Virus record (IMG/VR): IMGVR_UViG_3300037156_000068
Location: 1 to 63,314 of that record
Length of the DNA stretch: 63,314 nucleotides
Strand: one strand, 5' to 3'
Source: a virus
Taxonomy: Duplodnaviria; Caudoviricetes
Below, piece by piece: positions 1,502 through 27,088 of the stretch. A program made the translations under genes and the position numbers. Each line of letters opens with the position of its first letter. Within the stretch, counting starts at the first letter, position 1. The notes below the pieces were generated by a model. That model saw nothing but the letters and a program-made list of their open reading frames with translations. It was not told where the DNA came from and ran no database searches.

Positions 1502-1503
1502 AT

Positions 1504-2037: not shown

Positions 2038-2039
2038 AT

Positions 2040-5039: not shown

Positions 5040-5123
5040 ACGACGATTCTTTTTGGCAAAGCCCGAGGATCGCGAGATGGTGCCAATCACTAAGGAAGAT
5101 TTTATGAAATCACTAGGAATTAA

Positions 5124-5306: not shown

Positions 5307-5364
5307 TATTATCCTGCTTAGGGGGCCCAACTAAAGTATTTTATCATGGATTGGAGATTTGTCA

Positions 5365-5535: not shown

Positions 5536-5691
5536 ATGGAAGATAACGAAGAGTACAATTTCGGCTATGACCTAGCAGAAGAGTATGCCCTTGAAGATGC
5601 GTACTCATTCATATTCTTTCGGAGGACTGAGGATGGTTATTCAGATCGAGATGCGGCAGTCTCGGCGTTACAAACATTAGGCATTCTGTAG
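5536..5691 (+). CDS. 51-aa acidic microprotein (paralog B)
   Basis: MEDNEEYNFGYDLAEEYAL...ALQTLGIL; starts immediately after the paralog A stop. Confidence 0.65.
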   Translation: MEDNEEYNFGYDLAEEYALEDAYSFIFFRRTEDGYSDRDAAVSALQTLGIL

Positions 5692-5693
5692 GT

Positions 5694-5846
5694 ATGCGAT
5701 GTTACTCCTGCGAAGACCCAGAATGTGATGAGCATTGTATGCTTGAAGATGTAGTTTTTACAGAGGAGGAGATCGAGGACTATAATTGGTATATCAACAC
5801 TCACTTGCTGCCTAGTAGTACGAATAGTGTTGACACAGATACGTAG
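5694..5846 (+). CDS. small Cys-rich acidic protein
   Basis: MRCYSCEDPECDEHC...; packed ORF. Confidence 0.45.
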   Translation: MRCYSCEDPECDEHCMLEDVVFTEEEIEDYNWYINTHLLPSSTNSVDTDT

Positions 5847-5858
5847 ATAGGTTATTAT
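5830..5858 (+). promoter_or_regulatory. sigma70-type promoter upstream of SSB
   Basis: TTGACA-17-TATTAT. Confidence 0.8.
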
Positions 5859-5923
5859 ATTCGTAGTGGAAGATGTATTCCTCCACTATCAAACAATAAG
5901 AAAAAATAGGACAAGAAACAAAC

Positions 5924-6385
5924 ATGCCAATGTTACAAGGTAAGGCTTTCTACGCTAAGGTTGTCGGTAAGCCTAAGCCAGGTTATGATAAGACTAAGCT
6001 CGAATGGTCGCTTGATGTGGCCATTACCCCGGACACTAAGAAGCGCCTAATCAAAGAGGGCGTTGGTGCGTACATTAAGAACAAGGGTGATGATCGCGGA
6101 GACTTTATCTCCTTCAAGCGTGCTGCTACGAAGATGGATGGTACCCCAGGTAAGCCCATCGAGGTTGTTGATAACAAGGGTCAGCCATGGGATCAGAATA
6201 CCTTTATCGGTAATAAGTCTGTGGTCAATGTCATGTATGCGCTTAATGAGAAGGCTGCTGGTGGCCTGAAGCCCGGGCTAATTAAGATGCAAGTCTGGGA
6301 GCATGTGCCCTATGTGCCCTCCGGTGATCAGGAGGACTTCCCGGTTGTGGACGATGGTGAGAACTGGTCTGAGGATGCTGCGTAA
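5924..6385 (+). CDS. single-stranded DNA-binding protein (gp2.5-like)
   Basis: OB-fold-like phage SSB pattern (IGNKSVVNV, MQVWEHVPY), acidic C-tail, position in the replication module. Confidence 0.8.
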   Translation: MPMLQGKAFYAKVVGKPKPGYDKTKLEWSLDVAITPDTKKRLIKEGVGAYIKNKGDDRGDFISFKRAATKMDGTPGKPIEVVDNKGQPWDQNTFIGNKSVVNVMYALNEKAAGGLKPGLIKMQVWEHVPYVPSGDQEDFPVVDDGENWSEDAA

Positions 6386-6522
6386 CCCGCAGTAAGAACT
6401 AACCCAAGACCTACGGGTGCTTGGATTGGGCGTAGCATAAGTTCGTTGCTACGGAAGAGTAGGCGGCAGGATGGGGCCTATCTTCGCACTTTTAAGCAGA
6501 ACTAACAATTAAGAAAGATAAG

Positions 6523-6732
6523 ATGCGAAAATACGCATTTAAGTTTAATAGGCAGATCGAAGGTACTGAGGACTGTGACGCTACGGTCCTAGCTGAGACC
6601 GAACAAGAGGCCTTTGAGAAATTCAATAACAAAGAATGGGCCACGTTCTTAATCGCAAAGCGCGATGTTAAGACTGATATGTCAGACACACTGATCTCCA
6701 GTTATAAGGACCTTGGCATTGTCAGCACCTGA
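6523..6732 (+). CDS. hypothetical protein
   Basis: ORF. Confidence 0.55.
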   Translation: MRKYAFKFNRQIEGTEDCDATVLAETEQEAFEKFNNKEWATFLIAKRDVKTDMSDTLISSYKDLGIVST

Positions 6733-7624
6733 GATCACGACACTAATTGAGGACGTGTACGGGCTGTTCAAGGGGCATGAGTGTGACCCTAAGCGTGTTG
6801 AGGAATTTGGCCACAGCCTCGCTCAAATAGTCTCTAGCCGCCTAGCTGAGAACCGTGAGGGCCAGAAGCCAAACCTCCGCCTATCGGCCATAGGGAAGCC
6901 CCCTAGGGCTCTCTGGTACGATTTAAATGATAGTGAGTTAGCAGAGGATGCAAGGCGGTCAGCAGAACCCCTAGAACCTTATGTACGTCTCAAGTTTCTT
7001 ACCGGAGATTTGTGGGAGGCTGTTCTCTTGTTCCTGGCTAAAGAGGCTGGGCACACTGTTGAGCAGGAGCAGGCCACAGTCGAACTTAATGGAGTTGTGG
7101 GGCATATCGATGCGATAATCGATGGAGTGGTTGTGGATGTTAAGTCCGCATCGACGCGATCTTTTGAGAAGTTCAAGACCGGCGAACTCCGGAATGATGA
7201 TGGTTTCGGTTATATGGAGCAAATTTCCGGATATAGTTTGTCACTTGGAGGACTTCCCGGGGCTTTCTTCGCGGGGGATAAAACTCTTGGTCATCTAGCG
7301 CTTATGCAAATGGATAGTGCTGAGCTGGCCAATATTCAACCGGTTGAGCGCATTGACTATCTAAGAGGCGTTATTGCCAGCCCCGAGCCCCCTGAGAGGT
7401 GCTACAGCCCTAAGATTGAGGGGTCTAAAAACTATAAGACCGGTGGATTTAGTCCGAATGGTAATCTGAGCCTAAGCACTGGCTGCTCCTATTGCAAATT
7501 CAAGCAGACGTGTTGGTCAGACTCTAATGGTGGTCTCGGGCTCAGAGGCTATGTCTATTCCAGCGGTATCAAATGGTTCACCCATATCGAGTCAGAACCT
7601 AAGGTTATGGAAGTGACCTTTTAA
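6713..7624 (+). CDS. PD-(D/E)XK exonuclease (Cas4/RecB-like)
   Basis: GHIDAIIDGVVVDVKSAS, QISGYS, C-terminal CSYC...C cluster. Confidence 0.85.
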   Translation: MALSAPEITTLIEDVYGLFKGHECDPKRVEEFGHSLAQIVSSRLAENREGQKPNLRLSAIGKPPRALWYDLNDSELAEDARRSAEPLEPYVRLKFLTGDLWEAVLLFLAKEAGHTVEQEQATVELNGVVGHIDAIIDGVVVDVKSASTRSFEKFKTGELRNDDGFGYMEQISGYSLSLGGLPGAFFAGDKTLGHLALMQMDSAELANIQPVERIDYLRGVIASPEPPERCYSPKIEGSKNYKTGGFSPNGNLSLSTGCSYCKFKQTCWSDSNGGLGLRGYVYSSGIKWFTHIESEPKVMEVTF

Positions 7625-8151
7625 TGGGTAAGAGAAGTAATTTTGAAAGGATTCCAAGGGATTTCTATCAAACACCGCTGGAAGCAGTCCTACCACTTCT
7701 AGACCATCTCCCTCTAAATACGCAATTCATCGAACCGTGCGCTGGTGACGGGGCGCTTGTTAGACATTTAGAGGCTTCCGGGCATACTTGCATAGAGGCT
7801 TATGATATTGAGCCTCAGAATGTGGATATTTATAAGGCTGATGCGCTGCAAGTATATTTCGGTGATAGGGCTGAATATCTAATAACCAATCCCCCATGGG
7901 ATCGAAATATCCTCCACCCACTGATTGACCATTTTTCGGCGCAGGTCTCGACTTGGCTACTGTTTGATGCTGATTGGATTCATACTAAACAGTCGATACC
8001 TTATCTGAACAGGCTACGTAGCATAGTTTCCATCGGACGCATCAAATGGATTCCAGATTCAAAGATGACTGGTAAAGATAACTGTGCATGGTATCTATTC
8101 GTGCCAGAGGACCGGAATCCCGGCGAAATAACTTTCTATGGTCGTAATTAA
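7624..8151 (+). CDS. orphan amino-DNA methyltransferase (N6A/N4C type)
   Basis: SAM-binding IEPCAGDG and catalytic TNPPW. Confidence 0.8.
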   Translation: MGKRSNFERIPRDFYQTPLEAVLPLLDHLPLNTQFIEPCAGDGALVRHLEASGHTCIEAYDIEPQNVDIYKADALQVYFGDRAEYLITNPPWDRNILHPLIDHFSAQVSTWLLFDADWIHTKQSIPYLNRLRSIVSIGRIKWIPDSKMTGKDNCAWYLFVPEDRNPGEITFYGRN

Positions 8152-8176
8152 AATAATAATAATAAGGATAAAAAGT

Positions 8177-8443
8177 ATGAAAAACATCGTTGACTTCCCC
8201 TCCACTGGAGACGAACAACCCAAGGAACCTACGCATTATATCTATGAAATCTCAGTAAAGAAATCTGATGGTCAGGACGAGATTATTAAGTGCGAAGGTT
8301 ATCTTATTGCAACTCCAGCGTTTATTGGTATTTGTCAAGGCCCATACGCTGCATCGAAGTTCCATTTTATCGCCCCGCTGGATAATGTTAATTACGCGAA
8401 CTCTAGTGGCTCGGTCAAGTTCACCGGAAGGCTGTCCAGCTAG
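8177..8443 (+). CDS. hypothetical protein
   Basis: ORF with aagga SD. Confidence 0.55.
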   Translation: MKNIVDFPSTGDEQPKEPTHYIYEISVKKSDGQDEIIKCEGYLIATPAFIGICQGPYAASKFHFIAPLDNVNYANSSGSVKFTGRLSS

Positions 8444-8444
8444 T

Positions 8445-8795
8445 ATGGCGGGACCAAGAAACCCCTTTGAACGTAGGGTTGATGCTGAATTTCAGCGGTT
8501 AAAGGCTGGGGCCAAGTATGAGAGTCTCAGGATTCCCTACAGTATCCATGCGGAGTACATCCCCGATTGGGTTCTGCCAAATGGTAATGTCATTGAGGGG
8601 AAGGGGTTCTTGGACAAAGATTCTAAGAGGAAGATGATTGCAGTTAAGAAATGTAATCCACACCTAAAAATCTTCTTTGTCTTTTTCGATGCCCATAAGA
8701 AAATTAGTGGGACAAAACAAACTCATGCGGGCTGGGCCGAGAAAAACGGCTTTGGCTGGAGCCATGAGTTGCCACTGGAGGAATGGATTAAATGA
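8445..8795 (+). CDS. Holliday junction resolvase, T7 endonuclease I-like
   Basis: RNPFE...YIPDWVLPNGNVIEGKG...WAEKNGF. Confidence 0.9.
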   Translation: MAGPRNPFERRVDAEFQRLKAGAKYESLRIPYSIHAEYIPDWVLPNGNVIEGKGFLDKDSKRKMIAVKKCNPHLKIFFVFFDAHKKISGTKQTHAGWAEKNGFGWSHELPLEEWIK

Positions 8796-8989
8796 TTTTA
8801 GACTTAGGTATTTCTAGGATGTCTCGCGTGTACGCCTCACGGGAATGGCATAAAACCTTCGCATGGTTGCCTGTTTATGTAGGTGATCGCGACTGGCGTT
8901 GGCTAGAGTATGTTGAGCGGAGATTCGACGGTTGGTCCAATTGGTATGATAAGCCGGTTCTCCCGGAGTATAGGGCACTAGATGAGTAA
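8792..8989 (+). CDS. hypothetical phage protein
   Basis: WHKTFAWLPV...WLEYVERR pattern; ATGA coupling. Confidence 0.6.
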   Translation: MILDLGISRMSRVYASREWHKTFAWLPVYVGDRDWRWLEYVERRFDGWSNWYDKPVLPEYRALDE

Positions 8990-9722
8990 GCGAGTGCTGG
9001 TGATTGACTGTGAGACAAAGCCAAGTGTTGTTTACGCGTTCAATGCCTATGATGTTAATGTCCAACCCGAGCAAGTAATAAAGTCTGGTGGTATCATCTG
9101 TTTCGCAGCCCAATGGGTTGGTGAAAAAGAGATCATGTTCTACTCTGACTGGGATGATGGTCACTACGGTATGCTTAGAGCAGCCCATAAGCTGTTATCT
9201 GAAGCTGATGCGGTCGTGGGCTACAATTCGATGAAGTTCGACATACCTAAGTTCCGCGGGGAGTTCATCCTAGCGGGCCTTGAGGATATTCCCCCTCTGA
9301 CCCAGATCGATGTGTATAAGACAGTCAAACAGTTCGGACTATATATCAACAAACTAGCCTTCATCGGTCCCCTATTTGAACTCGGCGCTAAGATTAAGCA
9401 CGAGGGGTTTTCTCTCTGGCGCGGTGTTATGGAGGGGGATGCGAAATGCCAGAAGCGCATGAAAAAGTATTGTATTGGTGACGTCAAACTCACTACACGT
9501 CTTTATCTGCATGTGAAAGGCTTCATCCGTAATCATCCTCATCTCGGAGACGACAGGTCAGAGTGTGGAAATTGTGGCAGTAAGCACACCCAGCATCGAG
9601 GATTTAGTCGGACTAAGTATTTTAAGACACAGAGGCTGCAATGTGTCCAGTGCGGCAGTTGGAGTACGGGTGCCCGGACTGCCATCAAGAAAGAAGTCGG
9701 TGACGGCATTGTTGACCACTAG
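8982..9722 (+). CDS. DEDD 3'-5' exonuclease (RNase H superfamily) with C-terminal Zn ribbon
   Basis: IDCET, GYNSMKFD, YCIGDV; CGNCG...CVQCG. Confidence 0.85.
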   Translation: MSKRVLVIDCETKPSVVYAFNAYDVNVQPEQVIKSGGIICFAAQWVGEKEIMFYSDWDDGHYGMLRAAHKLLSEADAVVGYNSMKFDIPKFRGEFILAGLEDIPPLTQIDVYKTVKQFGLYINKLAFIGPLFELGAKIKHEGFSLWRGVMEGDAKCQKRMKKYCIGDVKLTTRLYLHVKGFIRNHPHLGDDRSECGNCGSKHTQHRGFSRTKYFKTQRLQCVQCGSWSTGARTAIKKEVGDGIVDH

Positions 9723-13976: not shown

Positions 13977-14014
13977 ATGCGTCGCGGAGTATTACCGGGC
14001 GCTCTAGACAAACT

Positions 14015-14054
14015 AAAGGCCCGCCAGGAGTAGCATCCCAGCGGGCCTTCTTTT
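14015..14054. terminator. intrinsic terminator where the two genome arms converge (probably bidirectional)
   Basis: aaggcccgc...gcgggcctt stem, then cttttg on +; A-run on the left. Confidence 0.75.
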
Positions 14055-14074
14055 GTAGCAAATCTGCTACGCTT

Positions 14075-14446
14075 TTATTTAGTAAGACTGGCCCTAAACG
14101 CCACAACCTGAGCATCCACCGCAGCCTTCAGCGCATTAGCGGCAGTAACGATGGCCGCATCAATAGCCGGAGTTACAACACCAGCTACAGGCCCCACAGC
14201 ACTCGCTAGAAGCCCATTAACTGTAGTCTCAACGGTAAGGGTCGCCGGACCAATAAGACCGCCCAGAAGGGTGTCTGCGGCCCCAATGGCATTGCTCGCA
14301 GCCTGCTTAAGGTCTGTAAGGATTGCAGCCTCAGCCTGAGTGGCCACTGTGCTGCCGCTAAAGGCCTTGGTAACATCCGCCTCAATACGAGTAACGGCAG
14401 TTTGCCATGTAGTTTTGCCGGTCCAGGCGTCTGATAGAATAGACAT
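14075..14446 (-). CDS. Ala-rich hypothetical protein (lysis-region position)
   Basis: ORF coupled to the upstream holin-like gene. Confidence 0.6.
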   Translation of the reverse strand: MSILSDAWTGKTTWQTAVTRIEADVTKAFSGSTVATQAEAAILTDLKQAASNAIGAADTLLGGLIGPATLTVETTVNGLLASAVGPVAGVVTPAIDAAIVTAANALKAAVDAQVVAFRASLTK

Positions 14447-14709
14447 TAGTTTGTATCTCCTTGTTCAGTTTGGGTTGTGCTAACTTTGGCCTTCTCATTC
14501 ATGAAGGACCAGATCAAACCAACCAAGATTAATCCCCCATTAACGCCCCAATTAACAAAGGCCTGCTCCGCAGTATTTGATGGAAGCACGCCCTTTGCAA
14601 GCATGTAAGTCCCAGCAGCCACCATAAGGTGCCTGAGTTGCCCCGAGATGAGCCAACGAATTACAGCAGGTGTGGTATTAGCGATGTCCTGAATTGGGTC
14701 ATCAGTCAT
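14446..14709 (-). CDS. putative holin (2 TM)
   Basis: LRHLMVAAGTYMLAKG...LILVGLIWSF, charged C-tail. Confidence 0.6.
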   Translation of the reverse strand: MTDDPIQDIANTTPAVIRWLISGQLRHLMVAAGTYMLAKGVLPSNTAEQAFVNWGVNGGLILVGLIWSFMNEKAKVSTTQTEQGDTN

Positions 14710-14721
14710 TATATCTTCCTT

Positions 14722-15003
14722 TTAAGTGTTGCACGTATCATCATGAGCCGGTATTCTCTGGCGTTGTCTGCCTCTAAGACCCTCGGCTAGGTCTTTGATG
14801 GTCTCACGGAAGCCACGCATTTCAGTTCTAAGTTCAATTACCAGTTCACGCATAGCACTACTAGCCTTAGCATCCTCTTTTAGTGTTTTCACTTGCTGAG
14901 AGATACCTGAGGCCCACCAGATGGCAACGCCTAGTTGTACCATCATAGCGAAGCCTAGGGCGACTGCGGCGACTGTACCCTGATCAAGGGACCAACCGTT
15001 CAT
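14722..15003 (-). CDS. single-TM coiled-coil membrane protein (holin-associated type)
   Basis: N-terminal TM ending AIWWAS, then coiled coil. Confidence 0.55.
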   Translation of the reverse strand: MNGWSLDQGTVAAVALGFAMMVQLGVAIWWASGISQQVKTLKEDAKASSAMRELVIELRTEMRGFRETIKDLAEGLRGRQRQRIPAHDDTCNT

Positions 15004-15009
15004 GATATT

Positions 15010-16197
15010 TTAAAAACCATTTGAATCTATCCAGTTCTTAACCCAGGTGGCAATGCCGGTGTAGCCATTGGTAAAATTTGGGTTGGCCGCACTCGTAGCG
15101 TTCTGTCCTGGGTGGATCACATCAACTGCCGTGAAAGCAGAACTACTGATATGGGTTACTGCCGTGGTCGAGGCATAGCCCCGAGTGCAGGTGTACGACC
15201 CGCTGGAGCCACCGGAAATGAATACCTTCTCGGAGCCCACCGTCACGACGTTGCCGTTAGCTAGGGCTGCGGTCGTCGTAAACGCGCAGGTGCTTGTGTC
15301 TGCTATCGCACCGGTCGTGCCGCTAAGGTCCCCAGCGCGCAGAGAATAAGGCGGAACATCGTGGCCGTGGTCGATGACGTCAGCAGCGTTAGAGGGGTCG
15401 TAGGCATTTATTAGGTTGGTCCGGATATCAATCACGTGGGAGCCGTAGGCAGAGATGAGCGCGGTGTTCAGGGCAATGATCGAGTTGTAGTCCGCCTGCC
15501 CTGACCATTGAGTTGTCTCGGCGTCATTAAGCAGCGTCATGACCATCCAGCAGGTCGTGTAGCTTTGGGCCGTCGCTACCGATGCTGCGATATCCGCCAG
15601 AACTTGGGTGGGCGCGGTGAGGCCATTGTTGATCCCCTCCTCGATGACGATGCAGCCGTTGAGCTGGGTCCGCGTGACGGGGGTCCAATTAGTTCCGGCC
15701 GAGACAGAAATGGGCGAAGCGGGGAAGTTGATCGGCGTGAAAAGGTAGAGATGGGTTCCAGGGTCGATACAATAGCCCAGGTAGGGCGTGCCCGAGAGAA
15801 CGACTTGAAGAATGATGCCGGGGGCAAATGCGCGATAACAGGGATCGTAGAACGCCGGAAAGTGGACAGCGACTTGGCCGCTCGTCGGAAGGGTGAACCC
15901 GACATCGAACGTTTGCTGAGTCTGGCCAGGATAGGCGTTCATCCGCACGGCGATCTGGCCAGAACCCTGGCCGCCGATGCCGTTGTTGTTGACGATGAAC
16001 GTGGGTTTCTGGCCCAACAATTGTCCTGGCCAAGTGACGCCGCTGGCGTCTTGATTTCCCGCAGTGATGCTATCGCCGAAACCCGAGACTTGGCCTTGGG
16101 ACAGACCCGCTCCAAGCGAGATGCTCTGTGCGTAAGCGCCAAAGCTAACCGCCCAACTAAGAACAAGACATAGAAGGAATCTAGCGATCACGGTCAT
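15010..16197 (-). CDS. SGNH/GDSL esterase with predicted signal peptide
   Basis: GDSITAG, GIGGQGS, EGINN, DVIHP; N-terminus MTVIARFLLCLVLSWAVSFGAYA|Q (ATG at 16197). Confidence 0.8.
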   Translation of the reverse strand: MTVIARFLLCLVLSWAVSFGAYAQSISLGAGLSQGQVSGFGDSITAGNQDASGVTWPGQLLGQKPTFIVNNNGIGGQGSGQIAVRMNAYPGQTQQTFDVGFTLPTSGQVAVHFPAFYDPCYRAFAPGIILQVVLSGTPYLGYCIDPGTHLYLFTPINFPASPISVSAGTNWTPVTRTQLNGCIVIEEGINNGLTAPTQVLADIAASVATAQSYTTCWMVMTLLNDAETTQWSGQADYNSIIALNTALISAYGSHVIDIRTNLINAYDPSNAADVIDHGHDVPPYSLRAGDLSGTTGAIADTSTCAFTTTAALANGNVVTVGSEKVFISGGSSGSYTCTRGYASTTAVTHISSSAFTAVDVIHPGQNATSAANPNFTNGYTGIATWVKNWIDSNGF

Positions 16198-16201
16198 ATC
16201 C

Positions 16202-16969
16202 CTAGTGCTGGAAGCAATGATAGTCGATCTTTTCACCCGTCGTCGCCGTCTGGGTAATCGTGATCGCGGTGGTGGAAATGGTATAGGCGAACGCCAGGAG
16301 CTGGGTTTGCGGCGTGACGGTACAGAATGGGGCATTAGTCTTCGTGCTGGCGAAAGTGATGACTAGAGAGGTTCCCGATGTGCCAGTGGTCGCCTCGCCT
16401 GCCGTGTCTGTCGAGCCTGAAGCGATAGTGGGCGTACCCGTGCCGGTTACGGTGGGGATGGCCCCTAAGGCAAAGACGCCTAGAGGAGCGGCACGAAGCG
16501 CTTCGGTCGCGGTCCCCGAAACATCCACGATTAACGAAACATCTCCGGCCGCGTCCGCACCAATCCCTGCTTTCGCGTCCGCACGATTGGGGGAAAAGGT
16601 GGGTAATGTTGCCGTTGCCCCCTGCCCCTGTAGGCGGAAACTCGTTGCAGTGGAGGAAAGCAGATCGACATATACGATCGTCCCAAACGTGCCCCATTGC
16701 TGCACCCGCGTCCCGCTCGCGATCATGACAGGATTGCCGAGTGCCGCACTGCCGATGCCTGTGGTGGCATCTCCTTTATCCGGATTGATTGTTGGAACCG
16801 TTGCCGACGCGGCTACATTGGACAGGGAGAAGCTATCCGCCGCAGACCCGGTGATGGTGCCCACTGCACAGATGATGCCAGGAGCACAACCCCCGCCAGC
16901 GTTGATCGTTTGGGCTTCAGCCGCACCGGCAAAGGCAAGGAGAGTTAGGACGCTTGCGAAGACTCTCAT
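16202..16969 (-). CDS. tail-fibre-like Thr/Gly-rich protein with predicted signal peptide
   Basis: MRVFASVLTLLAFAGAAEA|Q; C-terminal ITFAS...PFCTVT...IDYHC fibre-tip-like pattern. Confidence 0.65.
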   Translation of the reverse strand: MRVFASVLTLLAFAGAAEAQTINAGGGCAPGIICAVGTITGSAADSFSLSNVAASATVPTINPDKGDATTGIGSAALGNPVMIASGTRVQQWGTFGTIVYVDLLSSTATSFRLQGQGATATLPTFSPNRADAKAGIGADAAGDVSLIVDVSGTATEALRAAPLGVFALGAIPTVTGTGTPTIASGSTDTAGEATTGTSGTSLVITFASTKTNAPFCTVTPQTQLLAFAYTISTTAITITQTATTGEKIDYHCFQH

Positions 16970-17445
16970 TGGTAGACCGCCGAAAAGGCGTGGCCTGTGG
17001 TGGGAGCCGTGATGGTGATTGCGTCCGTAACGACAATGCTACCGCTGGCGCAACTGAACGTGCCGCCTGCTAGAAGATTGAACACCGTCGTTGCACCTAC
17101 CCTGACATTTAACGCTTCAACGGCAGTCGTCGGGTTCTGGATCAGGCACCCCTTGCGTATAGAGCTAGCAGCGATGGCCGTTTGATATGTGCCACCAAGG
17201 GTAACGGTGCCGGACGCATCCGTTGATGTGGCTCCGCTAGGCCTAGTGACTACAGGAATATTCCCACTTGAATCTGGTGCGACACAGTGCAGTGGCGAGT
17301 TAGGATCGCACACACCAACATCCTGGGCAATCACAGGATATGGTGCAGCATGAGCCAACGGGGACAGAGCCAAGATGCACAGAAATGCCCCTAGGCTAAC
17401 GAGCTTAGGCCGATAGGCCGCGCTTCTTGAAAGCTTATTGTGCAT
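16966..17445 (-). CDS. beta-sandwich virion-type protein with predicted signal peptide
   Basis: gggaga SD; ...LGAFLCILALSPLAHA|AP; RKGCLIQNP. Confidence 0.65.
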   Translation of the reverse strand: MHNKLSRSAAYRPKLVSLGAFLCILALSPLAHAAPYPVIAQDVGVCDPNSPLHCVAPDSSGNIPVVTRPSGATSTDASGTVTLGGTYQTAIAASSIRKGCLIQNPTTAVEALNVRVGATTVFNLLAGGTFSCASGSIVVTDAITITAPTTGHAFSAVYQ

Positions 17446-17479
17446 CAAATTTTCTCCCAAGGTTAATTTATTAATCATC

Positions 17480-18592
17480 TTATCTTGCTCTTCGTGCGCC
17501 AATGAAGCCATAGGACGTTACGGTCCCACTACCAAAATTAGAGTAAGCACCTAGATATACTGTGGTTGTGGTGGCCAAACTTAGACGAATAGTCCCGGTA
17601 ATAATAACCAAGCCACTTACGCTACTTGAATTAGGGGCACTTGAGTTATAGCCTCCCGCATTCGGGGGTGAGGGCCTCGTTGCAGATACTGTACTGATCC
17701 AAGTGATAGCATTAATCGCTGCCGAACTGCTGCCAGCGAATCCAACGTTTCCGTTAACATCCCAGTCACCGGCAGTGAGACTGATGGATGCGACATCAGC
17801 AGCCACTGTGGATGTGAGCGAGACTGCACTGCCAAAGGCTCGGGTCTCGCTAATATACTCACCGACATAACCGGCAGCCGCATCATCATTAGTCGTTGTG
17901 CCGAGTAAGTGGCCTCCAATTGTAATCGTACCTGATCCGGTAATCGGCCCACCCGAGGTGGTGAAGCCGGTAGTGCCACCCGAAACTGCAACACTCGTGA
18001 CGGTACCTGTGCCCGAGACAGAACCCCAGGCAGGCACACCACCAGAGATTAGGAGCACGTCTCCCGTACCACCAACACCTAAGCGGGTAGCGCGGTTAGT
18101 CCCATTTCCAACGATAAGATCGCCAATAGATGTTATAGGCGATAGGGCATTAAAGGCGGCAGCGGCAGTATTCTCACCAGTTCCCCCATTTACCAGTTCG
18201 AGTGTTCCCGCAAGAGTGATGGTTCCTGAGGTTGTGATGGGGCCTCCTGAAGTTATCAGACCCGTGGTTCCACCTGACACATCAACACTAATAACGCCAC
18301 CACCAGAACCCCCGGAAGCCGTGGCGAGAGTTACCTGATCCCAGATGAGATTCTCTAGACTGTCATTAACGATCTGACGATAATAGCCAGGACCCCAGAT
18401 CGCTGCTGACCCTAATGAGTCTAGGGTGATTGGGTTAGTGTTAGGGATAACACCCGCATAATCGCTGTATGAAGTTTTAGGTGTGAAGCCACCTGGGATA
18501 TAAGTGAAAACCTGCCCACCGACGAGTGGTTGGCCATTCCCATCAAAGAATTGCTGACGGCCATTGGGGAGAAGGGCGACGGTAGTGGTCAA
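17480..18592 (-). CDS. tail fibre protein (leaderless paralog of 36404-38548)
   Basis: N-terminal LLPNGRQQFFDGNGQPLVGG...NTNPITLD virion-attachment domain; GTVTSV..GG.TG..GGPIT.SGT repeats. Confidence 0.8.
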   Translation of the reverse strand: MTTTVALLPNGRQQFFDGNGQPLVGGQVFTYIPGGFTPKTSYSDYAGVIPNTNPITLDSLGSAAIWGPGYYRQIVNDSLENLIWDQVTLATASGGSGGGVISVDVSGGTTGLITSGGPITTSGTITLAGTLELVNGGTGENTAAAAFNALSPITSIGDLIVGNGTNRATRLGVGGTGDVLLISGGVPAWGSVSGTGTVTSVAVSGGTTGFTTSGGPITGSGTITIGGHLLGTTTNDDAAAGYVGEYISETRAFGSAVSLTSTVAADVASISLTAGDWDVNGNVGFAGSSSAAINAITWISTVSATRPSPPNAGGYNSSAPNSSSVSGLVIITGTIRLSLATTTTVYLGAYSNFGSGTVTSYGFIGARRAR

Positions 18593-21061
18593 TTACTTAG
18601 TTCCCTGTTTTGGACTAGGTTGGAACATATTATTAGTTAAAATAGATCCGGCCACAGTTCCCGCGTTAACAGGAGCCTCGGTCGGATAGTATTTAGATGT
18701 TCCGTTTAGAGCATTACCTAAAAATCTGTTCCTAACGTCTGGTGATAGATTAGACATTCGCTTAGCCGCCCCTGCCAGGCCTTTGATTGCTGCTCCGCCA
18801 CCAGCCACGCCAGCCGCAACAGCCGCAGGAATAGGGTGAGAGAGGGCAAGAACTGAGTCTGCGATACCAGCAGAGCCGACTAAGCTTGGAGCCCATTGCT
18901 TGAGCCTGTCAGATAGGCGGTCAGCCGTAAAGCTATTCGGAGGCTCCTTCATAAAGGTCTGGCCGATTTGAGCTAACTCGCCTAAATCACCAGCGCCTTG
19001 AAATGCGCGTTGTTTGAAGTTTGTATTCACAGCCCCATTGAGAAGATTTGGATTAATTTCACCCTCAACATTAGCCTTAGCTGCAAGATTCTTAACAGTC
19101 ATTAAGTTTTTATATTGAAATCTAGCCTGTTTAAGTGCGGCCGCATCTTCTGGACTAGCCTCTGCCTCCAGAGCATCATCTAGGGCATTTCTGATTTGCT
19201 GGGCGTATTGTCTGATATCGCTGTTCTTGCTTATTGTAGCATTGTCTAGGGGGCTGCCCTTAGCAATCAGGGATTGATATGATGGTCCCGAGAGCACCTC
19301 ACCACTATTATGCCCAATCCCGGGCTGGAATGTGTCTGAGATATTTTTAATTTGATTCAATAGCGGCTTAAGTTCCGCATCTGGCACCACCTGAGCCGCA
19401 TTCCATGTGATTGAGTGCAACTTCGCTAATAGTTCTGGTGTATTGGTAATATTAGTACGGGAACCGATATCATTCATCACGCCGCCAATGCGATCTTTAG
19501 CCGCATCCATAACATCTGGAGTTAGCTTATCTGCATCTGAGCCGAAGGTTTTTGCAACTGCTGTTGTGAAGGCTGTCCGCTGGTCAGCATTATTAGCAGC
19601 GTGCCCAGCATCCTTGCCAATTAACTCAGAGTCAGCAGTCGCAGCCGCACGATTAACGTTGTTAGCACCCTTGATCTGTAAGACACGCAGTGGAATACCA
19701 TACTTGTCCACAGCAACCTGGGCCAGGCTCGCAACAGCAGGGGTCACACCTTTTGTAGCCCCACCACTAAACAGGTTGCTAACATAGTTAGAGGCACCCT
19801 CCGCCAGAGGAGTCGCCACAGCACCGCCAATAGCCCCGAGGCCAACATTCTGACCAAGAGAATTATTATTTCCAGCGGATGTTAGGGCACCCACTTCCCC
19901 GCCCTGCGCAAGACCTCGTGTAGCTAATGAGAGCCCTCGCGTAAGAGCATTCGTTCCGGCAGTACCCCCGAGGAATGATGCGGCGGGGGCAAAGCGAGAC
20001 CCGGCCAATGCACCCTCAGCAAGTTCACCAGCACCCGGGATCATTAGGGCTGGTGCGGTACCGAGCATCTCACCGCCAAATTTGCCCAGACCATATTGAA
20101 GACTACCTGAGTAGTTGGCATCATTCGATTGTCGGTTAAGGAGACCCTGGGCCAGATCATTGCGAGCACTCTGGCTGAAGGGGGCGGCAAGACCTTCGAC
20201 AGAATTCTTGACGTTTGACAGGCCCTGTTCAATACCTGTGAGGCTCTGGCCCCCGCCGGCAGTATCAACTGGGTTGCTAGCGGACTGAGTTTTATGGGCA
20301 ATGTCATCCGGATGATCTTTGAGCCACTGGGCGATCCGATCAGGATTTGTATCTGGTTGAGCGCCAACAGTTAGATGTAGGCTATGGGTGGGATCAGCAG
20401 CCGTGTCAGCCGCATCCTGCTTAGCATTCTTAGCCGCATCGTCAGGATTTCCGCCGAGGAAAGCGATTGATCCATCCGCATTACGACCAACGTGATTATA
20501 CGGATCATAAACGGGGAAGCCCGGCTTATCCTTAGAGGCCTCGGAATCGATAGCTAGTTGGGCAGCCTCGGCCGGGTCAACAGCAGCAGTAGCCGCCCCA
20601 TTGAGGTCAGGTACACCAGGGGGATGGTACTTGTCGGTGAAGTAGAGTTGTCCATCTGGCCCCTCAGTACCAGTCCCATCGTCAAAGGAGGCCTTACTAC
20701 CGGCGGGCTTCATAGCCTTCGGACCATAGTATGTGTCAGCCTGGGTGACTGGCTTCTGTGTCCCGAGCAGATAAGGGGCGGCCGCAGCTAAAGTAGTCTG
20801 GTACCGAGGGCTATCAGTAGGTATATCTTTATACTTATCCCAGTCGGATGTGGTCCGGGCGGAGAACTGAGAATGATCGGTGATTAACGTATTATAGTCA
20901 AGACCAGACTTCAACTTACGATTATACAAGACAGACGCCACAGACGCAGGATCGCCCTCCCCGATGATGGTACGAATAACATCAGGATTAATTGACGAAT
21001 AGTCCGGAGTTGCAGGAGCATCCGGGGCGGGAATGGCATCCTCAAGGTCTGGGATGGACAT
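18593..21061 (-). CDS. large ejection (internal virion) protein with N-terminal SleB-like cell-wall hydrolase
   Basis: RTIIGE..ASVASVLYNR...SQFS...ADTYY...QLYF; Ala/Gly-rich helical remainder; P22 gp16 position. Confidence 0.7.
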   Translation of the reverse strand: MSIPDLEDAIPAPDAPATPDYSSINPDVIRTIIGEGDPASVASVLYNRKLKSGLDYNTLITDHSQFSARTTSDWDKYKDIPTDSPRYQTTLAAAAPYLLGTQKPVTQADTYYGPKAMKPAGSKASFDDGTGTEGPDGQLYFTDKYHPPGVPDLNGAATAAVDPAEAAQLAIDSEASKDKPGFPVYDPYNHVGRNADGSIAFLGGNPDDAAKNAKQDAADTAADPTHSLHLTVGAQPDTNPDRIAQWLKDHPDDIAHKTQSASNPVDTAGGGQSLTGIEQGLSNVKNSVEGLAAPFSQSARNDLAQGLLNRQSNDANYSGSLQYGLGKFGGEMLGTAPALMIPGAGELAEGALAGSRFAPAASFLGGTAGTNALTRGLSLATRGLAQGGEVGALTSAGNNNSLGQNVGLGAIGGAVATPLAEGASNYVSNLFSGGATKGVTPAVASLAQVAVDKYGIPLRVLQIKGANNVNRAAATADSELIGKDAGHAANNADQRTAFTTAVAKTFGSDADKLTPDVMDAAKDRIGGVMNDIGSRTNITNTPELLAKLHSITWNAAQVVPDAELKPLLNQIKNISDTFQPGIGHNSGEVLSGPSYQSLIAKGSPLDNATISKNSDIRQYAQQIRNALDDALEAEASPEDAAALKQARFQYKNLMTVKNLAAKANVEGEINPNLLNGAVNTNFKQRAFQGAGDLGELAQIGQTFMKEPPNSFTADRLSDRLKQWAPSLVGSAGIADSVLALSHPIPAAVAAGVAGGGAAIKGLAGAAKRMSNLSPDVRNRFLGNALNGTSKYYPTEAPVNAGTVAGSILTNNMFQPSPKQGTK

Positions 21062-22530
21062 TATTTGTTATACCCGTTGACTAGATTGTCTGAGTGCTGC
21101 TTGCCAGCATTATATTTCTTGAGTTCTGTAGGAGACATAGAACCAGTTATCATCTGAGTTCTCTGCTCAGGTGTCATATACTTATCTTGGAAGTACCGAG
21201 GGTCATGCAGTGCGTTAAATCTCGCCTGAACTGTTAGATAGTCCGTACCAGGGTTCAAGTGTTTCCCAGTCGTCTGGAACTGCTTATTGTCAGCCCAGGT
21301 CCAGGCGGCATTCTTAGCCTTTATCCAGTCTAAGTTCCCCTTAGTCTGGGCGGCAAGCGCATCTAGAGCCGCATTACCCATCTGATTATTCGGGGAGGCG
21401 GCGCGGTTGATATTGGCCTGCTCGTTAGTGGGAAGGAATCCGAGAATACCTCTGTTAGCCGCAGCCATCTGTTCTTGGATTTTACCTAGAATTTGTTGTG
21501 AGGAGGACCCCGCATCAAAAGTTGATCCGGTAGCACGATTGATTGCTGCGATCACATCCGCTGTTTGAGTAGACCCGGGGCCCGTCCTGACACCACGAGC
21601 AAGTGTCCGAAGCTCATCAACATTGGACTCTTGATTTGTGATACTGGCTTGGGTATCCTGGAGGGCCTTGAGCTGCTCAGCAGCACCAAGTTTAGGAATA
21701 TCCGCACCAGTAGCCAGGCCTGTCGTAATCTGGCCCTGCGGCCCTGTAATACCGTTGTTAGGCTTGATGTCTCCGGTAGGCGTGGCTGTTGCCGCATTGG
21801 GGACGGAATAGGGCTGACCAGTAGTGGGGTCAATACCACTATTTCGGACAATTTTCTGTGCAGGCGTTAGCGTGACCGGGATACTTGCGGAATTACCACC
21901 CACAGAGGTTTGAGTCCCAAGGACAGGATTCTGAGCAACACCTTGAATTGTACCACCCGTGTCTATGTTCGCAATATTAGGGGCAATAGTCTGGCGTACA
22001 ATATCCCCGCCAGCGCCTGCGATTGCGGCGGCCCTAATATCATTAGTCAGGTCGCCACTACCCATATAGGCAGCAGCAGCCTCGGGCATGACCGCACCGG
22101 ATAAGACTAACTTACTGATAGCATCATGGGCATCTTTAGTAGCCCCAGCAGTATCGCCCTTCGCAACACCAGCCGCCCCGTATATGGCAGCAGTCTTTCT
22201 GAGTTGATCAACCTGAGTACCTGCGACGGCTAGGCCAGTTTGTTGGTTGGTTAGGCCTTGCCCTTTTAGCGCTGCGACACCCTGCAAAATTTCTGGGATT
22301 GCAAAAGCAGTACGCTTATCCGCCTGCAATAACGGAACTAATTTATTAGGGTCAACCTGACCATCTGGACCAGTAGCTTGACCAACGTATTGACCAGCAA
22401 GTTGCTTAGCCTGAAATAGCTTATTCTGATTCAGGGTATTCTGTAGACCAGCGAACCCTTCAATCGTTTGAAGAGGATTCCCAGGGGGCGTTACTTGTGC
22501 GGCCACATTAGACGTGTCAAAGCCAGCCAT
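21061..22530 (-). CDS. ejection protein (gp20 position)
   Basis: Gln/Gly/Ala-rich; between ejection genes. Confidence 0.6.
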   Translation of the reverse strand: MAGFDTSNVAAQVTPPGNPLQTIEGFAGLQNTLNQNKLFQAKQLAGQYVGQATGPDGQVDPNKLVPLLQADKRTAFAIPEILQGVAALKGQGLTNQQTGLAVAGTQVDQLRKTAAIYGAAGVAKGDTAGATKDAHDAISKLVLSGAVMPEAAAAYMGSGDLTNDIRAAAIAGAGGDIVRQTIAPNIANIDTGGTIQGVAQNPVLGTQTSVGGNSASIPVTLTPAQKIVRNSGIDPTTGQPYSVPNAATATPTGDIKPNNGITGPQGQITTGLATGADIPKLGAAEQLKALQDTQASITNQESNVDELRTLARGVRTGPGSTQTADVIAAINRATGSTFDAGSSSQQILGKIQEQMAAANRGILGFLPTNEQANINRAASPNNQMGNAALDALAAQTKGNLDWIKAKNAAWTWADNKQFQTTGKHLNPGTDYLTVQARFNALHDPRYFQDKYMTPEQRTQMITGSMSPTELKKYNAGKQHSDNLVNGYNK

Positions 22531-23715: not shown

Positions 23716-24780
23716 CTATGCTTCCTTCAATTGAAGACGATAATACGTTCCAAATGGTTCAGCACCCATTCGACGATAGAGTGTTGAGATCCTGTCTCCG
23801 GCACCTCTAATTCCAGCTCTCATAACCACTTCAGACACTCCACGATTGCGCAATCCCTCAGCGGCTTTACGTTGTAATTTTAAACCAATCCCGGGGTAAT
23901 CTGGCGAACTGTAGAATGCTGTGTGACAGCCAGAGAGACGACCGGTAGACTCTAGAGACTCACCAATAATAGTGACTAAGTATCCGAATATGCGTCCGTT
24001 AGATTTCGCCACTGTGATCTGTAACGCACCAGCATTGTCATAGGACTGTAGTAGGGCTAGATTCTTATTCGCATAGTTATCAGGATTCTCACCGACCTCA
24101 AGGCAATGCTCTTTCATCGCGAGTTGACCAGTGTCTAGTAGATTTTTAAAGGATTCAAACTCTAATACTAATTCTGGACCTGTGGTTACGCTACTAGCGC
24201 CAAGGAGCATCAAACTCTTCTGACGGGCGATAGCCGCTAGGCGTTCTAGTTGTGGCCTGTAAGCTGTAACATAGCGGTTAAGGGCGGCCACATCAACCTG
24301 GATGTTCTTGGCATTAAGTTCTGCCCACCGTTCACTGTCATGTTTGTGTGGGAGAAGATGCTCGAACAAATTTGCGCAGACCTCCTCATGAACTAGATCC
24401 TCGAATTGATAGGACTTACATTTGGTCCGTAGTTCAATTTGGTCTAACTTACGATCTAAATACTTAAATAGTTTAACTGTCTGCTCCAGATCATCGCTGA
24501 GCCCCGCGTTGACCGCACTACGGGCCGCCTCTTCCGGGTCTCTGCGTATAGTGACTATTTTTAAATCAGACTTCATATGGAGAGCCAATCTCCAGAAGGG
24601 TCCCACAGCAGTTTCAACTGTTCCTGTCTTAGGTTGATTAAACCAGGACTGAACATCCTCTAACTGGCGCATGTACTGAAGTTCATCATGGCCACAGTAC
24701 CAGTCATCATATGACAGGAACTCGGATAACCACGCGGTTCGAGACCTCGGTAATGCTAGGATAAGGAATTGCTGAGTCAT
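23716..24780 (-). CDS. sulfotransferase-like P-loop domain fused to GNAT acetyltransferase
   Basis: N-terminal FLILALPRSRTAWL; C-terminal SPDYPGIGLKL...LYRRMG. Confidence 0.65.
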   Translation of the reverse strand: MTQQFLILALPRSRTAWLSEFLSYDDWYCGHDELQYMRQLEDVQSWFNQPKTGTVETAVGPFWRLALHMKSDLKIVTIRRDPEEAARSAVNAGLSDDLEQTVKLFKYLDRKLDQIELRTKCKSYQFEDLVHEEVCANLFEHLLPHKHDSERWAELNAKNIQVDVAALNRYVTAYRPQLERLAAIARQKSLMLLGASSVTTGPELVLEFESFKNLLDTGQLAMKEHCLEVGENPDNYANKNLALLQSYDNAGALQITVAKSNGRIFGYLVTIIGESLESTGRLSGCHTAFYSSPDYPGIGLKLQRKAAEGLRNRGVSEVVMRAGIRGAGDRISTLYRRMGAEPFGTYYRLQLKEA

Positions 24781-25205
24781 TACGTCTTAACCAATGCTGT
24801 CACAACTGCATAGCGGACTGCTGATGCGGACCCAGCCGCAGTAAGGCCATATGTCCCTGTGAAGTGCGCGTAGTCAGACCCCACCACTACCCTATTTCTG
24901 AGGTCTGGTAAGTTAAATGTGAGAATACCATCCCCGGGACCCCAGGTGGTGCCAATAGCTTCAAATAGTTGTGGGAAGTCTGTCCGATTAACGGGAGCCC
25001 CGTCACATACTAACCAACCATCTTGCCCACTTACTGATCCAGAAAACTTAATATCTCCTGCGGCAAAGAGAGATCCACCCTCCTTAGCCCCGCTGCGAAG
25101 CCACAAGGTCATAAGAAGTCTGCGCCAAGACTCTTTAATGATGCCATCAGTTGTAGTGACAAATGGTGTGGAGATATTTGGAAAGCCCTGCTGCGTATCA
25201 GCCAT
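24780..25205 (-). CDS. tail collar domain protein
   Basis: GWLVCDGAPVNRTDFPQLFEAIGTTWGPGDG..TFNLPDLR. Confidence 0.85.
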   Translation of the reverse strand: MADTQQGFPNISTPFVTTTDGIIKESWRRLLMTLWLRSGAKEGGSLFAAGDIKFSGSVSGQDGWLVCDGAPVNRTDFPQLFEAIGTTWGPGDGILTFNLPDLRNRVVVGSDYAHFTGTYGLTAAGSASAVRYAVVTALVKT

Positions 25206-26533
25206 TATGTTTCACTTGGTTGGAACCAAGCATCAGCTCCGTTAAGTGCAGTAAAGATCGGTAAGTCCCAGAAAACTTCAAAGACCCTATAGCGCCCCTG
25301 GCCCAGTTGGGTGAATAAGACAGATCGATTGAATTGACCTGTAGCCCCAATTCCGCAAGTTCTAGGGTTGCCCCAGGTCTTACCTCTGTCATCACTATAA
25401 CGAAGAGAGATACGAGACTCGTTACTTACGAGTGTATCAGCCATCTCACCCACATCCATATCTAAGATAAGGCGAGACCATTCGATGCGTTGGCCGCCGG
25501 TCTCCTCTATGGGGAATCCTCGCCTGCGCACGATAGGTGAGCTGTTATCCGTATAGGCATTTAAGTCCCACTCGTACAGTTGTCCATTCTGCCAGTCTCC
25601 AACTACTATAGAACCATAAGCAGCCGCACAGTCGTTAGCCCTGATCCTGTGCTCCTCACCATTGTCATCGGTCCAAGTACGTTCGTGCCACATCTCCTCG
25701 GCCACATCATAGACCCATGTGGCGTCCGCAGAGGGGAAGGTCAGGACATAAAACGTATGACCGAGTTGTTGATAGGTAAATCCAATTGCATCAGTAGGGT
25801 CAGCATACTGTTGAATTTGCTGTTCAATGGCATGAGTGGAGATGCGCTTGGCTGCGTACTGATTGCCCGTGAAGACCATACAGCGGCCCTGGCGATCCTG
25901 AGACAACCAGTAGGTATTAAGATCCTGTCTAGCGATGCTGTATTTAGCGCAACAGCCGTGTTCAATGAAGACGCCTGGTAACTCTGCGAATGAGAAGTTG
26001 GCATTGCCAGCATCGTACCAGACTTCCGTAGTCTCAGTTCCGATAAGCCACACTTCACGGTGCATAACAATGACCGCTTGGATTGGATCGGGGTTGCCAG
26101 ATTTAGCGGCAATATCAAGTGGATCAAAAGCCGCTGCGGTTGCCCCCGGGGTTATTCCGCCTAAGAGGTTTGAATACGTCACATTTGATAGGGATGTGTA
26201 CCACTGATTAGTGCCTGGACGATTCAAGACAAAGAAGGTATCTACGAAATCAACTCGATCAGCCCCGTAGAATGCTCCAGTACCATTATCATTAATACTA
26301 GCCATGGCATGGGTAGTCAGGTCGATTGCACTTCCTAGGTTAGTCCCATCTACAATTACAATAGCCAGACCATTATCCGCCATGGATACGGGTGTTGTTA
26401 GATTGAGGTCCGCACTACCAAGTTCCCCTAGAACTGTTCGTGTCCAGTTTGGAGAAGTATAATAGACATACTGACCAATAACCTCAAAGAGTTGGCCATT
26501 TGATGCGGTGTATGAGCAGCGATGAATTGGCAT
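25205..26533 (-). CDS. P22 gp10-like tail hub/DNA stabilisation protein, C-terminal piece
   Basis: TTEVWYDAG, AKRISTHAIE, FTYQQLGHTFYVLTFP, SDDRGKTW, GQFNR. Confidence 0.85.
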   Translation of the reverse strand: MPIHRCSYTASNGQLFEVIGQYVYYTSPNWTRTVLGELGSADLNLTTPVSMADNGLAIVIVDGTNLGSAIDLTTHAMASINDNGTGAFYGADRVDFVDTFFVLNRPGTNQWYTSLSNVTYSNLLGGITPGATAAAFDPLDIAAKSGNPDPIQAVIVMHREVWLIGTETTEVWYDAGNANFSFAELPGVFIEHGCCAKYSIARQDLNTYWLSQDRQGRCMVFTGNQYAAKRISTHAIEQQIQQYADPTDAIGFTYQQLGHTFYVLTFPSADATWVYDVAEEMWHERTWTDDNGEEHRIRANDCAAAYGSIVVGDWQNGQLYEWDLNAYTDNSSPIVRRRGFPIEETGGQRIEWSRLILDMDVGEMADTLVSNESRISLRYSDDRGKTWGNPRTCGIGATGQFNRSVLFTQLGQGRYRVFEVFWDLPIFTALNGADAWFQPSET

Positions 26534-27088
26534 TTATGGTGAGGTGTAAGTTAAGTTGACGGTATTACTATCAGCCGCAGTACTCGCCGCATCCGTCACA
26601 GTACATTTGATGTACGCATCGAATGAGTTAAATGGTGTACCGATGGTGATTGTGTAACCTGTCGTCTGCGCCGTGGTGGACCCTGTAAATGTCCCGCTGC
26701 CAACACCACCAGTGCTGACTTCATCCCATAGATAGGTATAAGGAGGTGTACCACTACTAGGTGTGACTGTCAGAGAGAATGTATGGGCAGCATCACTACC
26801 AGAGAAATTCTGGTCATTGCCGATATTAGCCGATAAGGGTGGAGGAGGAGGTGGCGGCGGGGGAGGCGGCGGGGGGGGCGGCGGGGGAGGCGGCGGAGGG
26901 GGCGGTGGTGGTGGAGAGGGCGTATCAGCTAGCAGTGTCAGGCCAGGGGTCAATTGCATTGTTACGGGAAAAGGTGTCTCACCCCGAGTATTCGCCTCCG
27001 GATATAGATTAACGCAGCGTTGTGCGGAGGCGATTACAGATCTCGCCTGGTACATTCCGCCAGTTAATGGTATACGCTGTTGAGCCAT
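26534..27088 (-). CDS. gp10-like N-terminal piece + 26xPro linker + Ig/PKD-like domain
   Basis: RIPLTGGMYQARS..SAQRCVNLYPE...TPGL; then SSGTPPYTYLW...KCTVTDA. Confidence 0.75.
   Translation of the reverse strand: MAQQRIPLTGGMYQARSVIASAQRCVNLYPEANTRGETPFPVTMQLTPGLTLLADTPSPPPPPPPPPPPPPPPPPPPPPPPPPPLSANIGNDQNFSGSDAAHTFSLTVTPSSGTPPYTYLWDEVSTGGVGSGTFTGSTTAQTTGYTITIGTPFNSFDAYIKCTVTDAASTAADSNTVNLTYTSP
26837..26914 (-). repeat. CCN x26 polyproline tract
   Basis: 78 nt of consecutive Pro codons with mixed third positions. Confidence 0.95.

Follow-up and report, generated by a model that had tools for sequence, protein, structure and literature searches.

Export-type leaders and paired cysteines in three genes beside the tail fibre of an uncultured P22-like peat phage are consistent with exported host-recognition proteins

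Tailed-phage particles are, according to the textbook, assembled wholly in the cytoplasm, and their fibres are made without signal peptides. Why, then, should three consecutive genes following a tail fibre gene encode proteins that look as if they were meant to leave the cytoplasm? The question is raised by the IMG/VR virus record IMGVR_UViG_3300037156_000068 (Duplodnaviria; Caudoviricetes), analysed here over its whole stretch of 63,314 bases (the window), which comes from a short-tailed, P22-like, uncultured phage from peat. The three genes lie on the minus strand: open reading frame (ORF) A (16966-17445, 159 amino acids), ORF B (16202-16969, 255 amino acids) and ORF C (15010-16197, 395 amino acids), encoding a small jellyroll protein, a predicted trimeric fibre and a putative SGNH/GDSL esterase, respectively. 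Our reading, to which we give a probability of about 0.42, is that these are exported late proteins for host recognition, and that A and B attach to the phage particles at lysis.

The leaders themselves are readily seen. A leader was called where a positively charged n-region was followed by an uncharged hydrophobic h-region of at least eight residues and by small residues at positions -3 and -1; the detector and the cleavage rule are simple scripts following a crude rule, and not SignalP. By this scripted rule A, B and C each have a Sec (signal peptidase I) leader, with 33 residues in A (17347-17445, ending LAHA/AP, the slash marking the cleavage site), 19 in B (16913-16969, AEA/QT) and 23 in C (16129-16197, AYA/QS), and the predicted mature chains contain four, four and six cysteines. 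Both the leaders and the cysteine counts agree with the original prediction, which had been made from the letters alone. ORF A starts at the ATG at 17445, 8 nucleotides after a GGGAG, and the in-frame ATGs further upstream (17478, and 17511 as the first of the ORF) would merely lengthen the n-region. The start of B at 16969 overlaps the stop of A (ATGA), and C starts with the ATG at 16197, 4 nucleotides past the stop of B. A start of C at 16335, which would give the long ORF, was rejected; the 46 additional codons overlap B. That the true starts would lie downstream of the leaders can be ruled out because the next methionine of C follows the catalytic GDS motif and because the leaders recur in relatives. 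The lipobox pattern [LVI][ASTVI][GAS]C was not found in the leaders of A, B and C, and the cysteine in the leaders of A and C follows a leucine. Spanins (Rz/Rz1 or unimolecular) were also considered as an identity for the three proteins and rejected, as the proteins are beta-rich and have no lipobox.

A relaxed version of the detector flagged four of the 30 late-operon genes, namely A, B, C and a gene at 36404-38548. It is, however, permissive (27 of the 242 six-frame ORFs of at least 60 amino acids in the window were flagged), and the argument therefore rests mainly on the relatives. Ten leaderless late proteins contain no cysteine at all, including the tail fibre and the four products encoded between the fibre gene and 23714, three of which have ejection-protein family matches.

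The B family obtained with a word-indexed search consists of 111 proteins, of which 108 pass a stricter leader detector; the three failures are two fibre-like proteins and one apparently start-truncated protein. All 24 relatives of A, judged by eye, have a leader of the same form (n-region, h-region, AxA), and of the 16 relatives of C the majority start with a leader of the Sec or lipobox type, while one clearly lacks it. The leaders vary in sequence within the families and keep their form. After the scripted cleavage site an even number of cysteines is left in 110 of the 111 B-family proteins, in 24/24 of the A family and in 9/17 of the C family, where the count is confounded by the retained lipobox cysteine. 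Beyond the first set, a leader is present in 78 of 90 cluster representatives with the B domain, and in 51 of 54 when only those of at least 450 residues are counted. Judged from these sequences, leaders and paired cysteines appear to be traits of the families, and the observation seems real and far beyond chance at the family level. Export of A, B and C through Sec is, on this computational evidence, well supported and very probable.

The leaders could still be something other than export signals, that is, chance hydrophobic N-termini, uncleaved anchors or mis-called starts of proteins that fold in the cytoplasm. The permissive detector, the scripted leader calls and the few leaderless family members would fit such an explanation. 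It would have to account, however, for a leader pattern kept in hundreds of diverged relatives despite the change in sequence and for the even cysteine counts in the A and B families, and the coupling of the genes, together with where the catalytic serine lies, fixes the starts. We consider this explanation highly improbable. As a separate observation, glutamine is the first residue after the scripted cleavage site in 65/111 proteins of the B family and 10/24 of the A family, as well as in B, C and the 714-residue product of 36404-38548 in the window. This frequent glutamine was not taken as evidence for a Bacteroidota host (the Q-rule); neither the G+C content nor the relatives suggest such a host here.

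The fourth leader-bearing gene (36404-38548, minus strand, 714 amino acids, 13 cysteines) is located between the large terminase and portal genes, and its product is a paralog of the tail fibre. From residue 39 onward it aligns with the fibre from residue 4 onward (35% identity, E 5e-41), and the alignment begins right after the predicted ASA/QT cleavage site. The fibre itself, encoded directly upstream of A (17480-18592, minus strand), is leaderless, 370 amino acids long and free of cysteines, and has matches to phrog_11393 (tail fiber) and phrog_26190. Its N-terminal part of about 85 residues is the docking-type module of P22-like podophages, common to Pseudomonas phage PAE2, Rhodoferax phage P26218, Vibrio phages and other P22-like phages in which the distal domains differ. 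In cultured P22-like phages this module is found with unrelated distal enzymes, a pattern typical, at the sequence level, of parts by which fibres dock on the particle. The proposal that A, B and C form an exported module together with 36404-38548 thus gained partial support: the three families nearly always have Sec-type leaders with paired cysteines, and the fourth gene encodes a leader-bearing fibre paralog. The leader of this paralog is 37 residues long and contains a lipobox-like L-I-G-C in addition to the ASA/Q site.

In ORF B the leader is followed by an N-terminal cap with a Cys-x5-Cys motif, a shaft rich in G, T, S and A, and a conserved C-terminal knob of about 85 residues (about 16205-16462), in which C216 and C252 are invariant. 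When 1.84 billion cluster representatives were searched with the B profile using HMMER, 3150 clusters matched at E<=1e-3, 1139 at E<=1e-10 and 104 at E<=1e-30. In the 150 matches listed, the match ends at most 21 residues from the C-terminus (at most 6 in all but one), and the proteins carrying the knob range from 97 to 1877 amino acids. The AlphaFold2 monomer of B had a predicted local distance difference test score (pLDDT) of 75 overall and was good only from about residue 120 onward. Its fold matches in the PDB were weak (an H-type lectin with E 0.08, the cyanophage Pam1 tailspike over 72 columns, and the R2 pyocin fibre), and the best ones in BFVD were proteins of uncultured phages (E 2.8e-6 and 1.4e-4), followed by many tail-fibre entries. 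Modelled as three copies, residues 20-255 gave a trimer with an ipSAE (interaction prediction score from aligned errors) of 0.95 in all three runs, compared to 0.00 in the best of three controls. The runs agreed in at least 94% of contacts, the pLDDT of the partners was 94-95, and the contacts extend from residue 22 to 255. The mark used for ipSAE was reached by 20 of 30 solved pairs and by 1 of 23 single chains, but this calibration was made with two copies and with other alignments, so it is only a rough guide for a trimer. We predict that B forms a short homotrimeric fibre, with a Cys-x5-Cys cap at the N-terminus and a lectin-like knob at the C-terminus.

No known docking domain was found in B among the Pfam and PHROGs families, and the conserved N-terminal cap has been exchanged apart from the rest of the protein. 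Neither A nor B had a Pfam match at E <=0.1 or a PHROGs match at E <=0.01, and a tblastn search with each of them against 50,697 GenBank phage records gave no match. Among prokaryotes, searched with one genome per species, the B knob was present at two of the 64 loci hit by patterns, both in metagenome-assembled genomes (MAGs), the patterns being narrow.

ORF A has, after its leader, a short N-terminal module with a Cys-x7-Cys motif and a conserved C-terminal jellyroll domain of about 90 residues with two cysteines, C100 and C132, which are invariant in the family alignment. The AlphaFold2 model has a pLDDT of 77 overall and above 90 in the jellyroll domain. The best Foldseek matches, all of them weak, were Bacillus Ena subunits and cupins, and the nearest clusters in the ESM Atlas were viral hypothetical proteins with a score of 0.92. 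A resembles Ena (PDB 7a02, 9i0y and 9t3p) in having a jellyroll of about 100 residues, conserved cysteines and a cysteine-bearing N-terminal extension. However, the match is weak (E 0.01-0.06, template modelling (TM) score 0.34-0.51) and has no counterpart in sequence similarity, and cupins score nearly as well, so that membership of A in this group is not claimed. The order of A followed by B recurs in the window and in four related loci (L006, L003, L007 and L004), and a degenerate copy of it exists in a fifth (L010). A relationship between the C-terminal domains of A and B was considered as well and dropped, as the profile-profile comparison aligned the leaders only, with a probability of 14%.

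ORF C carries the blocks I (GDS), II (Gly), III (GxN) and V (DxxH) that define SGNH/GDSL enzymes, and the catalytic set S43, G73, N191, D359 and H362 is invariant or nearly so in 17 sequences. Ahead of the catalytic histidine there is an inserted beta-rich region. The match of C to PF13472 (E 3.6e-6, 28 bits) is below the cutoff of 32.9 and covers only the first 47 residues of the domain, whereas in a precomputed table the family is assigned to the cluster of C and to 13 of its 16 relatives (14/17 rows). The C-terminal part of C matches phrog_19652. A phmmer search of C against the PDB sequences found nothing, and tailspike entries were reached by the family profile only, which matched 9sij (E 5e-14) and 9sim (E 1.5e-13), both named 'Tail spike protein', over about 240 residues; in the 857-residue chain of 9sim the match covers residues 585-825. 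We found no relevant paper for the PDB codes 9SIJ, 9SIM and 9SIK in the literature. The tblastn search with C gave six records, which are minor tail proteins of Arthrobacter phages and a tail fibre of an E. coli phage, and the nearest ESM Atlas structures are bacterial SGNH proteins, with a TM score of 0.77 to a cluster rich in Acidobacteriota. The sequence thus identifies C as an SGNH esterase with intact catalytic residues, which most likely removes acyl groups from its presumed substrate, a surface polysaccharide. C shares with 9sij and 9sim the homologous SGNH domain and the set of Ser, Gly, Asn and Asp-x-x-His, but in those proteins the domain forms the distal portion of a long tailspike that belongs to the virion and has no leader, whereas C stands alone with a Sec-type leader and six cysteines. 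Another SGNH esterase of a tailspike is gp63.1 of phage G7C.

Groups of two to five leader-bearing genes in succession were found near tail or terminase genes in 14 IMG/VR loci with the B knob, and one of these genes encodes a protein of 1921 amino acids. In one related genome (G005; 41,322 bases, 96% complete) both fibre-like proteins, of 691 (with the B knob) and 417 amino acids, have leaders, and residues 20-58 of the smaller one align with residues 2-40 of the leaderless fibre of L010. Another relative (G003; 63,860 bases with terminal repeats, 100% complete) has three consecutive leader-bearing genes after the ejection proteins. Two loci deserve separate mention. On L008, a related P22-like contig, four consecutive leader-bearing genes at 43-8692 (plus strand) encode proteins of 143, 457, 370 and 1921 amino acids upstream of the terminase and portal genes, and the largest of them ends in the B knob. 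On L004, a contig of a groundwater Proteobacteria MAG, an A-like gene is followed at 7299-9507 by an ORF of 648 amino acids ending in the B knob, and the pair adjoins sugar-nucleotide and glycosyltransferase-like genes; a prophage remnant and a cellular use are both conceivable.

Exchange of modules at domain borders is evident from sequence comparisons with L003 and with peat contigs. L003 is 92% identical to B in residues 1-37 and divergent beyond. A peat contig of 9915 bases shares with the window only 15029-17235, spanning ORFs C and B together with the jellyroll domain of A; over this span the two are about 95% identical, with 102 differing letters and 7 gaps, and the contig is unlike the window on both flanks. 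In another sequencing run loose ends occur at 16821, 16869 and 17235, near the borders of the N-terminal modules of B and A. It seems that the cassette of C, B and A moves between phages as a unit.

The late genes of the window occupy the minus strand between about 40487 and 14075. In a consensus scan, no promoter-like or terminator-like sites were found on the minus strand between the genes of the fibre, A, B, C, the membrane protein and the holin, and the single strong terminator was the hairpin at 14050-14015 (15 pairs, 9 of them G-C), which ends the late operon after the gene at 14075-14446. A, B and C are thus late genes and not a self-contained moron, as no promoter or terminator separates them from the fibre or holin genes. 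A moron or lysogenic-conversion cassette had been considered and was rejected, since the same scan gave no trace of an own promoter and terminator in 18592-15010. Downstream of C there is a gene for a protein of 93 amino acids with a transmembrane-like segment from residue 9 and weak PHROG matches of unknown function (14722-15003, minus strand), followed by a holin gene of the Pam3 gp28 family (14446-14709, minus strand; PF23987, E 1.1e-7, 32.2 bits compared to a cutoff of 27).

This position directly upstream of a membrane protein and a holin raises the question whether the three proteins are helpers of lysis, with C either de-O-acetylating peptidoglycan for the endolysin or attacking outer-membrane lipids, and with A and B as envelope-binding accessories. 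Periplasmic SGNH esterases acting on O-acetylated peptidoglycan exist (Ape1), no spanin pair was recognised among the ORFs of the window, and the sole recognisable endolysin, a leaderless PF00959 lysozyme, is encoded far off at 30118-30555 (minus strand), about 15 kb from the holin. C is, however, most closely related to domains of tailspike, minor-tail and tail-fibre proteins rather than to peptidoglycan esterases; the predicted trimeric fibre formed by B has tail fibres among its fold neighbours; and in other phages the A and B families are found near tail and terminase genes, not always near lysis genes. A role in lysis is therefore improbable. The endolysin gene adjoins an HNH endonuclease gene (29750-30124, minus strand), and the two lie between the scaffold-like and coat genes.

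How, then, would A, B and C serve host recognition? We propose that they are late members of the host-recognition set of the phage. After passage through the Sec machinery of the host and removal of the leaders, they would acquire disulfide bonds and fold in the periplasm, with the remainder of the particle assembled in the cytoplasm. B would be a short homotrimeric fibre, and A a small jellyroll protein whose gene forms a conserved pair with that of B. The three proteins would first meet the DNA-filled particles when the holin and endolysin open the envelope. A and B would then, in the most likely reading, attach as accessory fibres beside the exported 714-residue paralog, and C would act on a glycan of the host surface, either mounted on the particle or free. 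Attachment is favoured because of the fibre architecture, the docking module on the exported paralog and the relatives whose only fibres carry leaders. Action after the opening of the envelope is most likely, as expression is late and, before lysis, a soluble periplasmic protein cannot reach the glycans of the outer surface. Late attachment is physically plausible, as tailspikes of P22 can reportedly be added to particles in vitro (attributed to Israel, Anderson and Levine, 1967). That A and B join the particle, presumably at lysis, is nevertheless a tentative proposal.

Several observations weigh against attachment or against export itself. A recognisable docking domain is absent from A, B and C, and only the product of 36404-38548 has one. 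The leaderless fibre is already present, so that the particle may be complete without the three proteins. The fold matches are weak, with E at least 0.01 for A and at least 0.08 for B in the PDB. No leader was found in 3/111 of the B family and in 12/90 of the further representatives, some of which are fragment-like, and the B knob can thus also occur on leaderless proteins. Many relatives of C resemble bacterial lipoproteins, having lipobox leaders and bacterial proteins as their nearest Atlas structures, which would fit a free exported enzyme equally well. Finally, export, cleavage and disulfide formation are computational inferences.

Some of these observations are what would be expected if the three proteins were exported and yet remained free. 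After release by lysis they would bind to the receptor glycan of the dying cell and its debris, or strip it off, so that fewer progeny are lost there; in a variant of this explanation the surface of the infected cell would be changed, with C as a receptor-destroying enzyme and B (with A) as a glycan-binding mask. The missing docking module, the leaderless fibre that the phage already has, the cellular exported enzymes that the lipobox-bearing relatives of C resemble, and C standing alone behind a leader where its solved relative is the distal domain of an 857-residue tailspike would all fit. There are also precedents in the lipoproteins Llp of T5 and Cor, which are encoded beside receptor-binding genes, and in the oac gene of Sf6 and the gtr genes of P22, which lie beyond the tailspike gene. 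However, the genes are inside the late operon and have no promoter of their own, leaving little time for remodelling the surface of a living cell, and before lysis the outer-surface glycans would be out of reach of a soluble periplasmic protein. Furthermore, the B family includes tail-module fibres of up to 1877 amino acids, and docking-type fibres of relatives carry leaders. Free factors are a possible explanation, to which we give slightly less weight than to attachment.

Attachment of A and B at lysis can be extended to a particle that would be built in two compartments, in this phage as in many others of soil and peat, with the head, the tail hub and the ejection proteins made in the cytoplasm, and with exported, Dsb-oxidised outer gear added at lysis. 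The exported gear would consist of the 714-residue paralog, the pair of A and B and perhaps the esterase, snapping on after the holin breach. This extension is rather speculative. If it is true, lysis would be the last step of assembly, and the Sec and Dsb systems of the host would be needed for infectious progeny.

The assignment of the phage is based on the genes in the window, the record of which has an estimated completeness of 85%. These include a P22-type portal gene (PF16510, E 1e-158), a P22-type coat protein gene, the genes for both terminase subunits, and genes for gp4-, gp10- and gp7-like tail and ejection proteins. By identity, the nearest portals are those of Pseudomonas phage PAE2 (43%) and Acetobacter phage phiAX1 (39%). 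A nucleotide search with 14000-21100 against the 50,697 GenBank phage records gave no match, and no tRNA genes were found in the window. Contigs from peat metagenomes of several studies contain 14000-18600 wholly or in parts, and no RNA run was listed among the sequencing runs holding this stretch. Some other features of the genome are worth recording. In the tail and ejection module, the gene at 23716-24780 (minus strand, 354 amino acids) encodes a protein with a weakly sulfotransferase/hydrolase-like N-terminal half and an acetyltransferase-like C-terminal half, which is unusual at such a position in a P22-like genome. Two adjacent ORFs (26534-27088 and 25205-26533, minus strand) together make up the gp10-like tail hub (phrog_578), which is thus divided, and the first of them has only the first ~55 profile positions and extra sequence. 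In the early region, the 205-residue product of 47672-48289 (plus strand) contains seven cysteines and, behind an internal start, a leader of the lipoprotein type (lipobox L-A-A-C); it had no Pfam match.

Exported phage proteins near receptor-binding genes are known from T5 (Llp), from phi80 and N15 (Cor) and from lambda (Lom and Bor). A, B and C are similar to Llp, Cor, Lom and Bor in being phage-encoded, probably exported by the host and located beside tail or fibre genes, and those proteins act on receptors or on the envelope. Llp, Cor, Lom and Bor are, however, small lipoproteins or outer-membrane proteins, often with a promoter of their own, whereas A, B and C are of the fibre or enzyme type and have no lipobox, promoter or terminator of their own. 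The P22-like podophages (PAE2, P26218, and those of Vibrio and Shewanella) share the particle type and the N-terminal module of the fibre, but none of their fibres has a leader in the matched stretch. Our full-text searches of the literature found no description of Sec leaders on fibre-type proteins. The statement in the original prediction that no such system has been described has to be narrowed to proteins of the fibre type, since exported phage proteins beside fibre genes are known. Esterases on tailspikes are likewise known. In Porphyromonas phages, genes with Sec signal peptides, including some with glutamine at +1, have been reported; in the passages of that paper on signal peptides they comprise capsid proteins, spanins and five unknown genes, and tail fibres are not named there (Matrishin et al. 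2023, PMC10367356). A term search of the Tunturi virus paper (PMC11924767) found neither 'signal peptide' nor 'tail fiber/fibre'.

The B knob, which occurs in no fewer than 1139 protein clusters, is without a match among cultured phages, so that a large unexplored group is concerned. If fibre-type proteins are routinely exported and oxidised in these phages, the infectivity of soil phages would depend on the Sec and Dsb systems of their hosts, and lysis would double as an assembly step. In that case, receptor-binding proteins would be overlooked by annotation pipelines that treat 'secreted' proteins as non-structural and drop them. Fibres and esterases locked by disulfides would also provide proteins of unusual stability for binding and modifying glycans. 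In case the proteins are instead released as free factors, they would represent a new class of late, exported, fibre-derived release factors.

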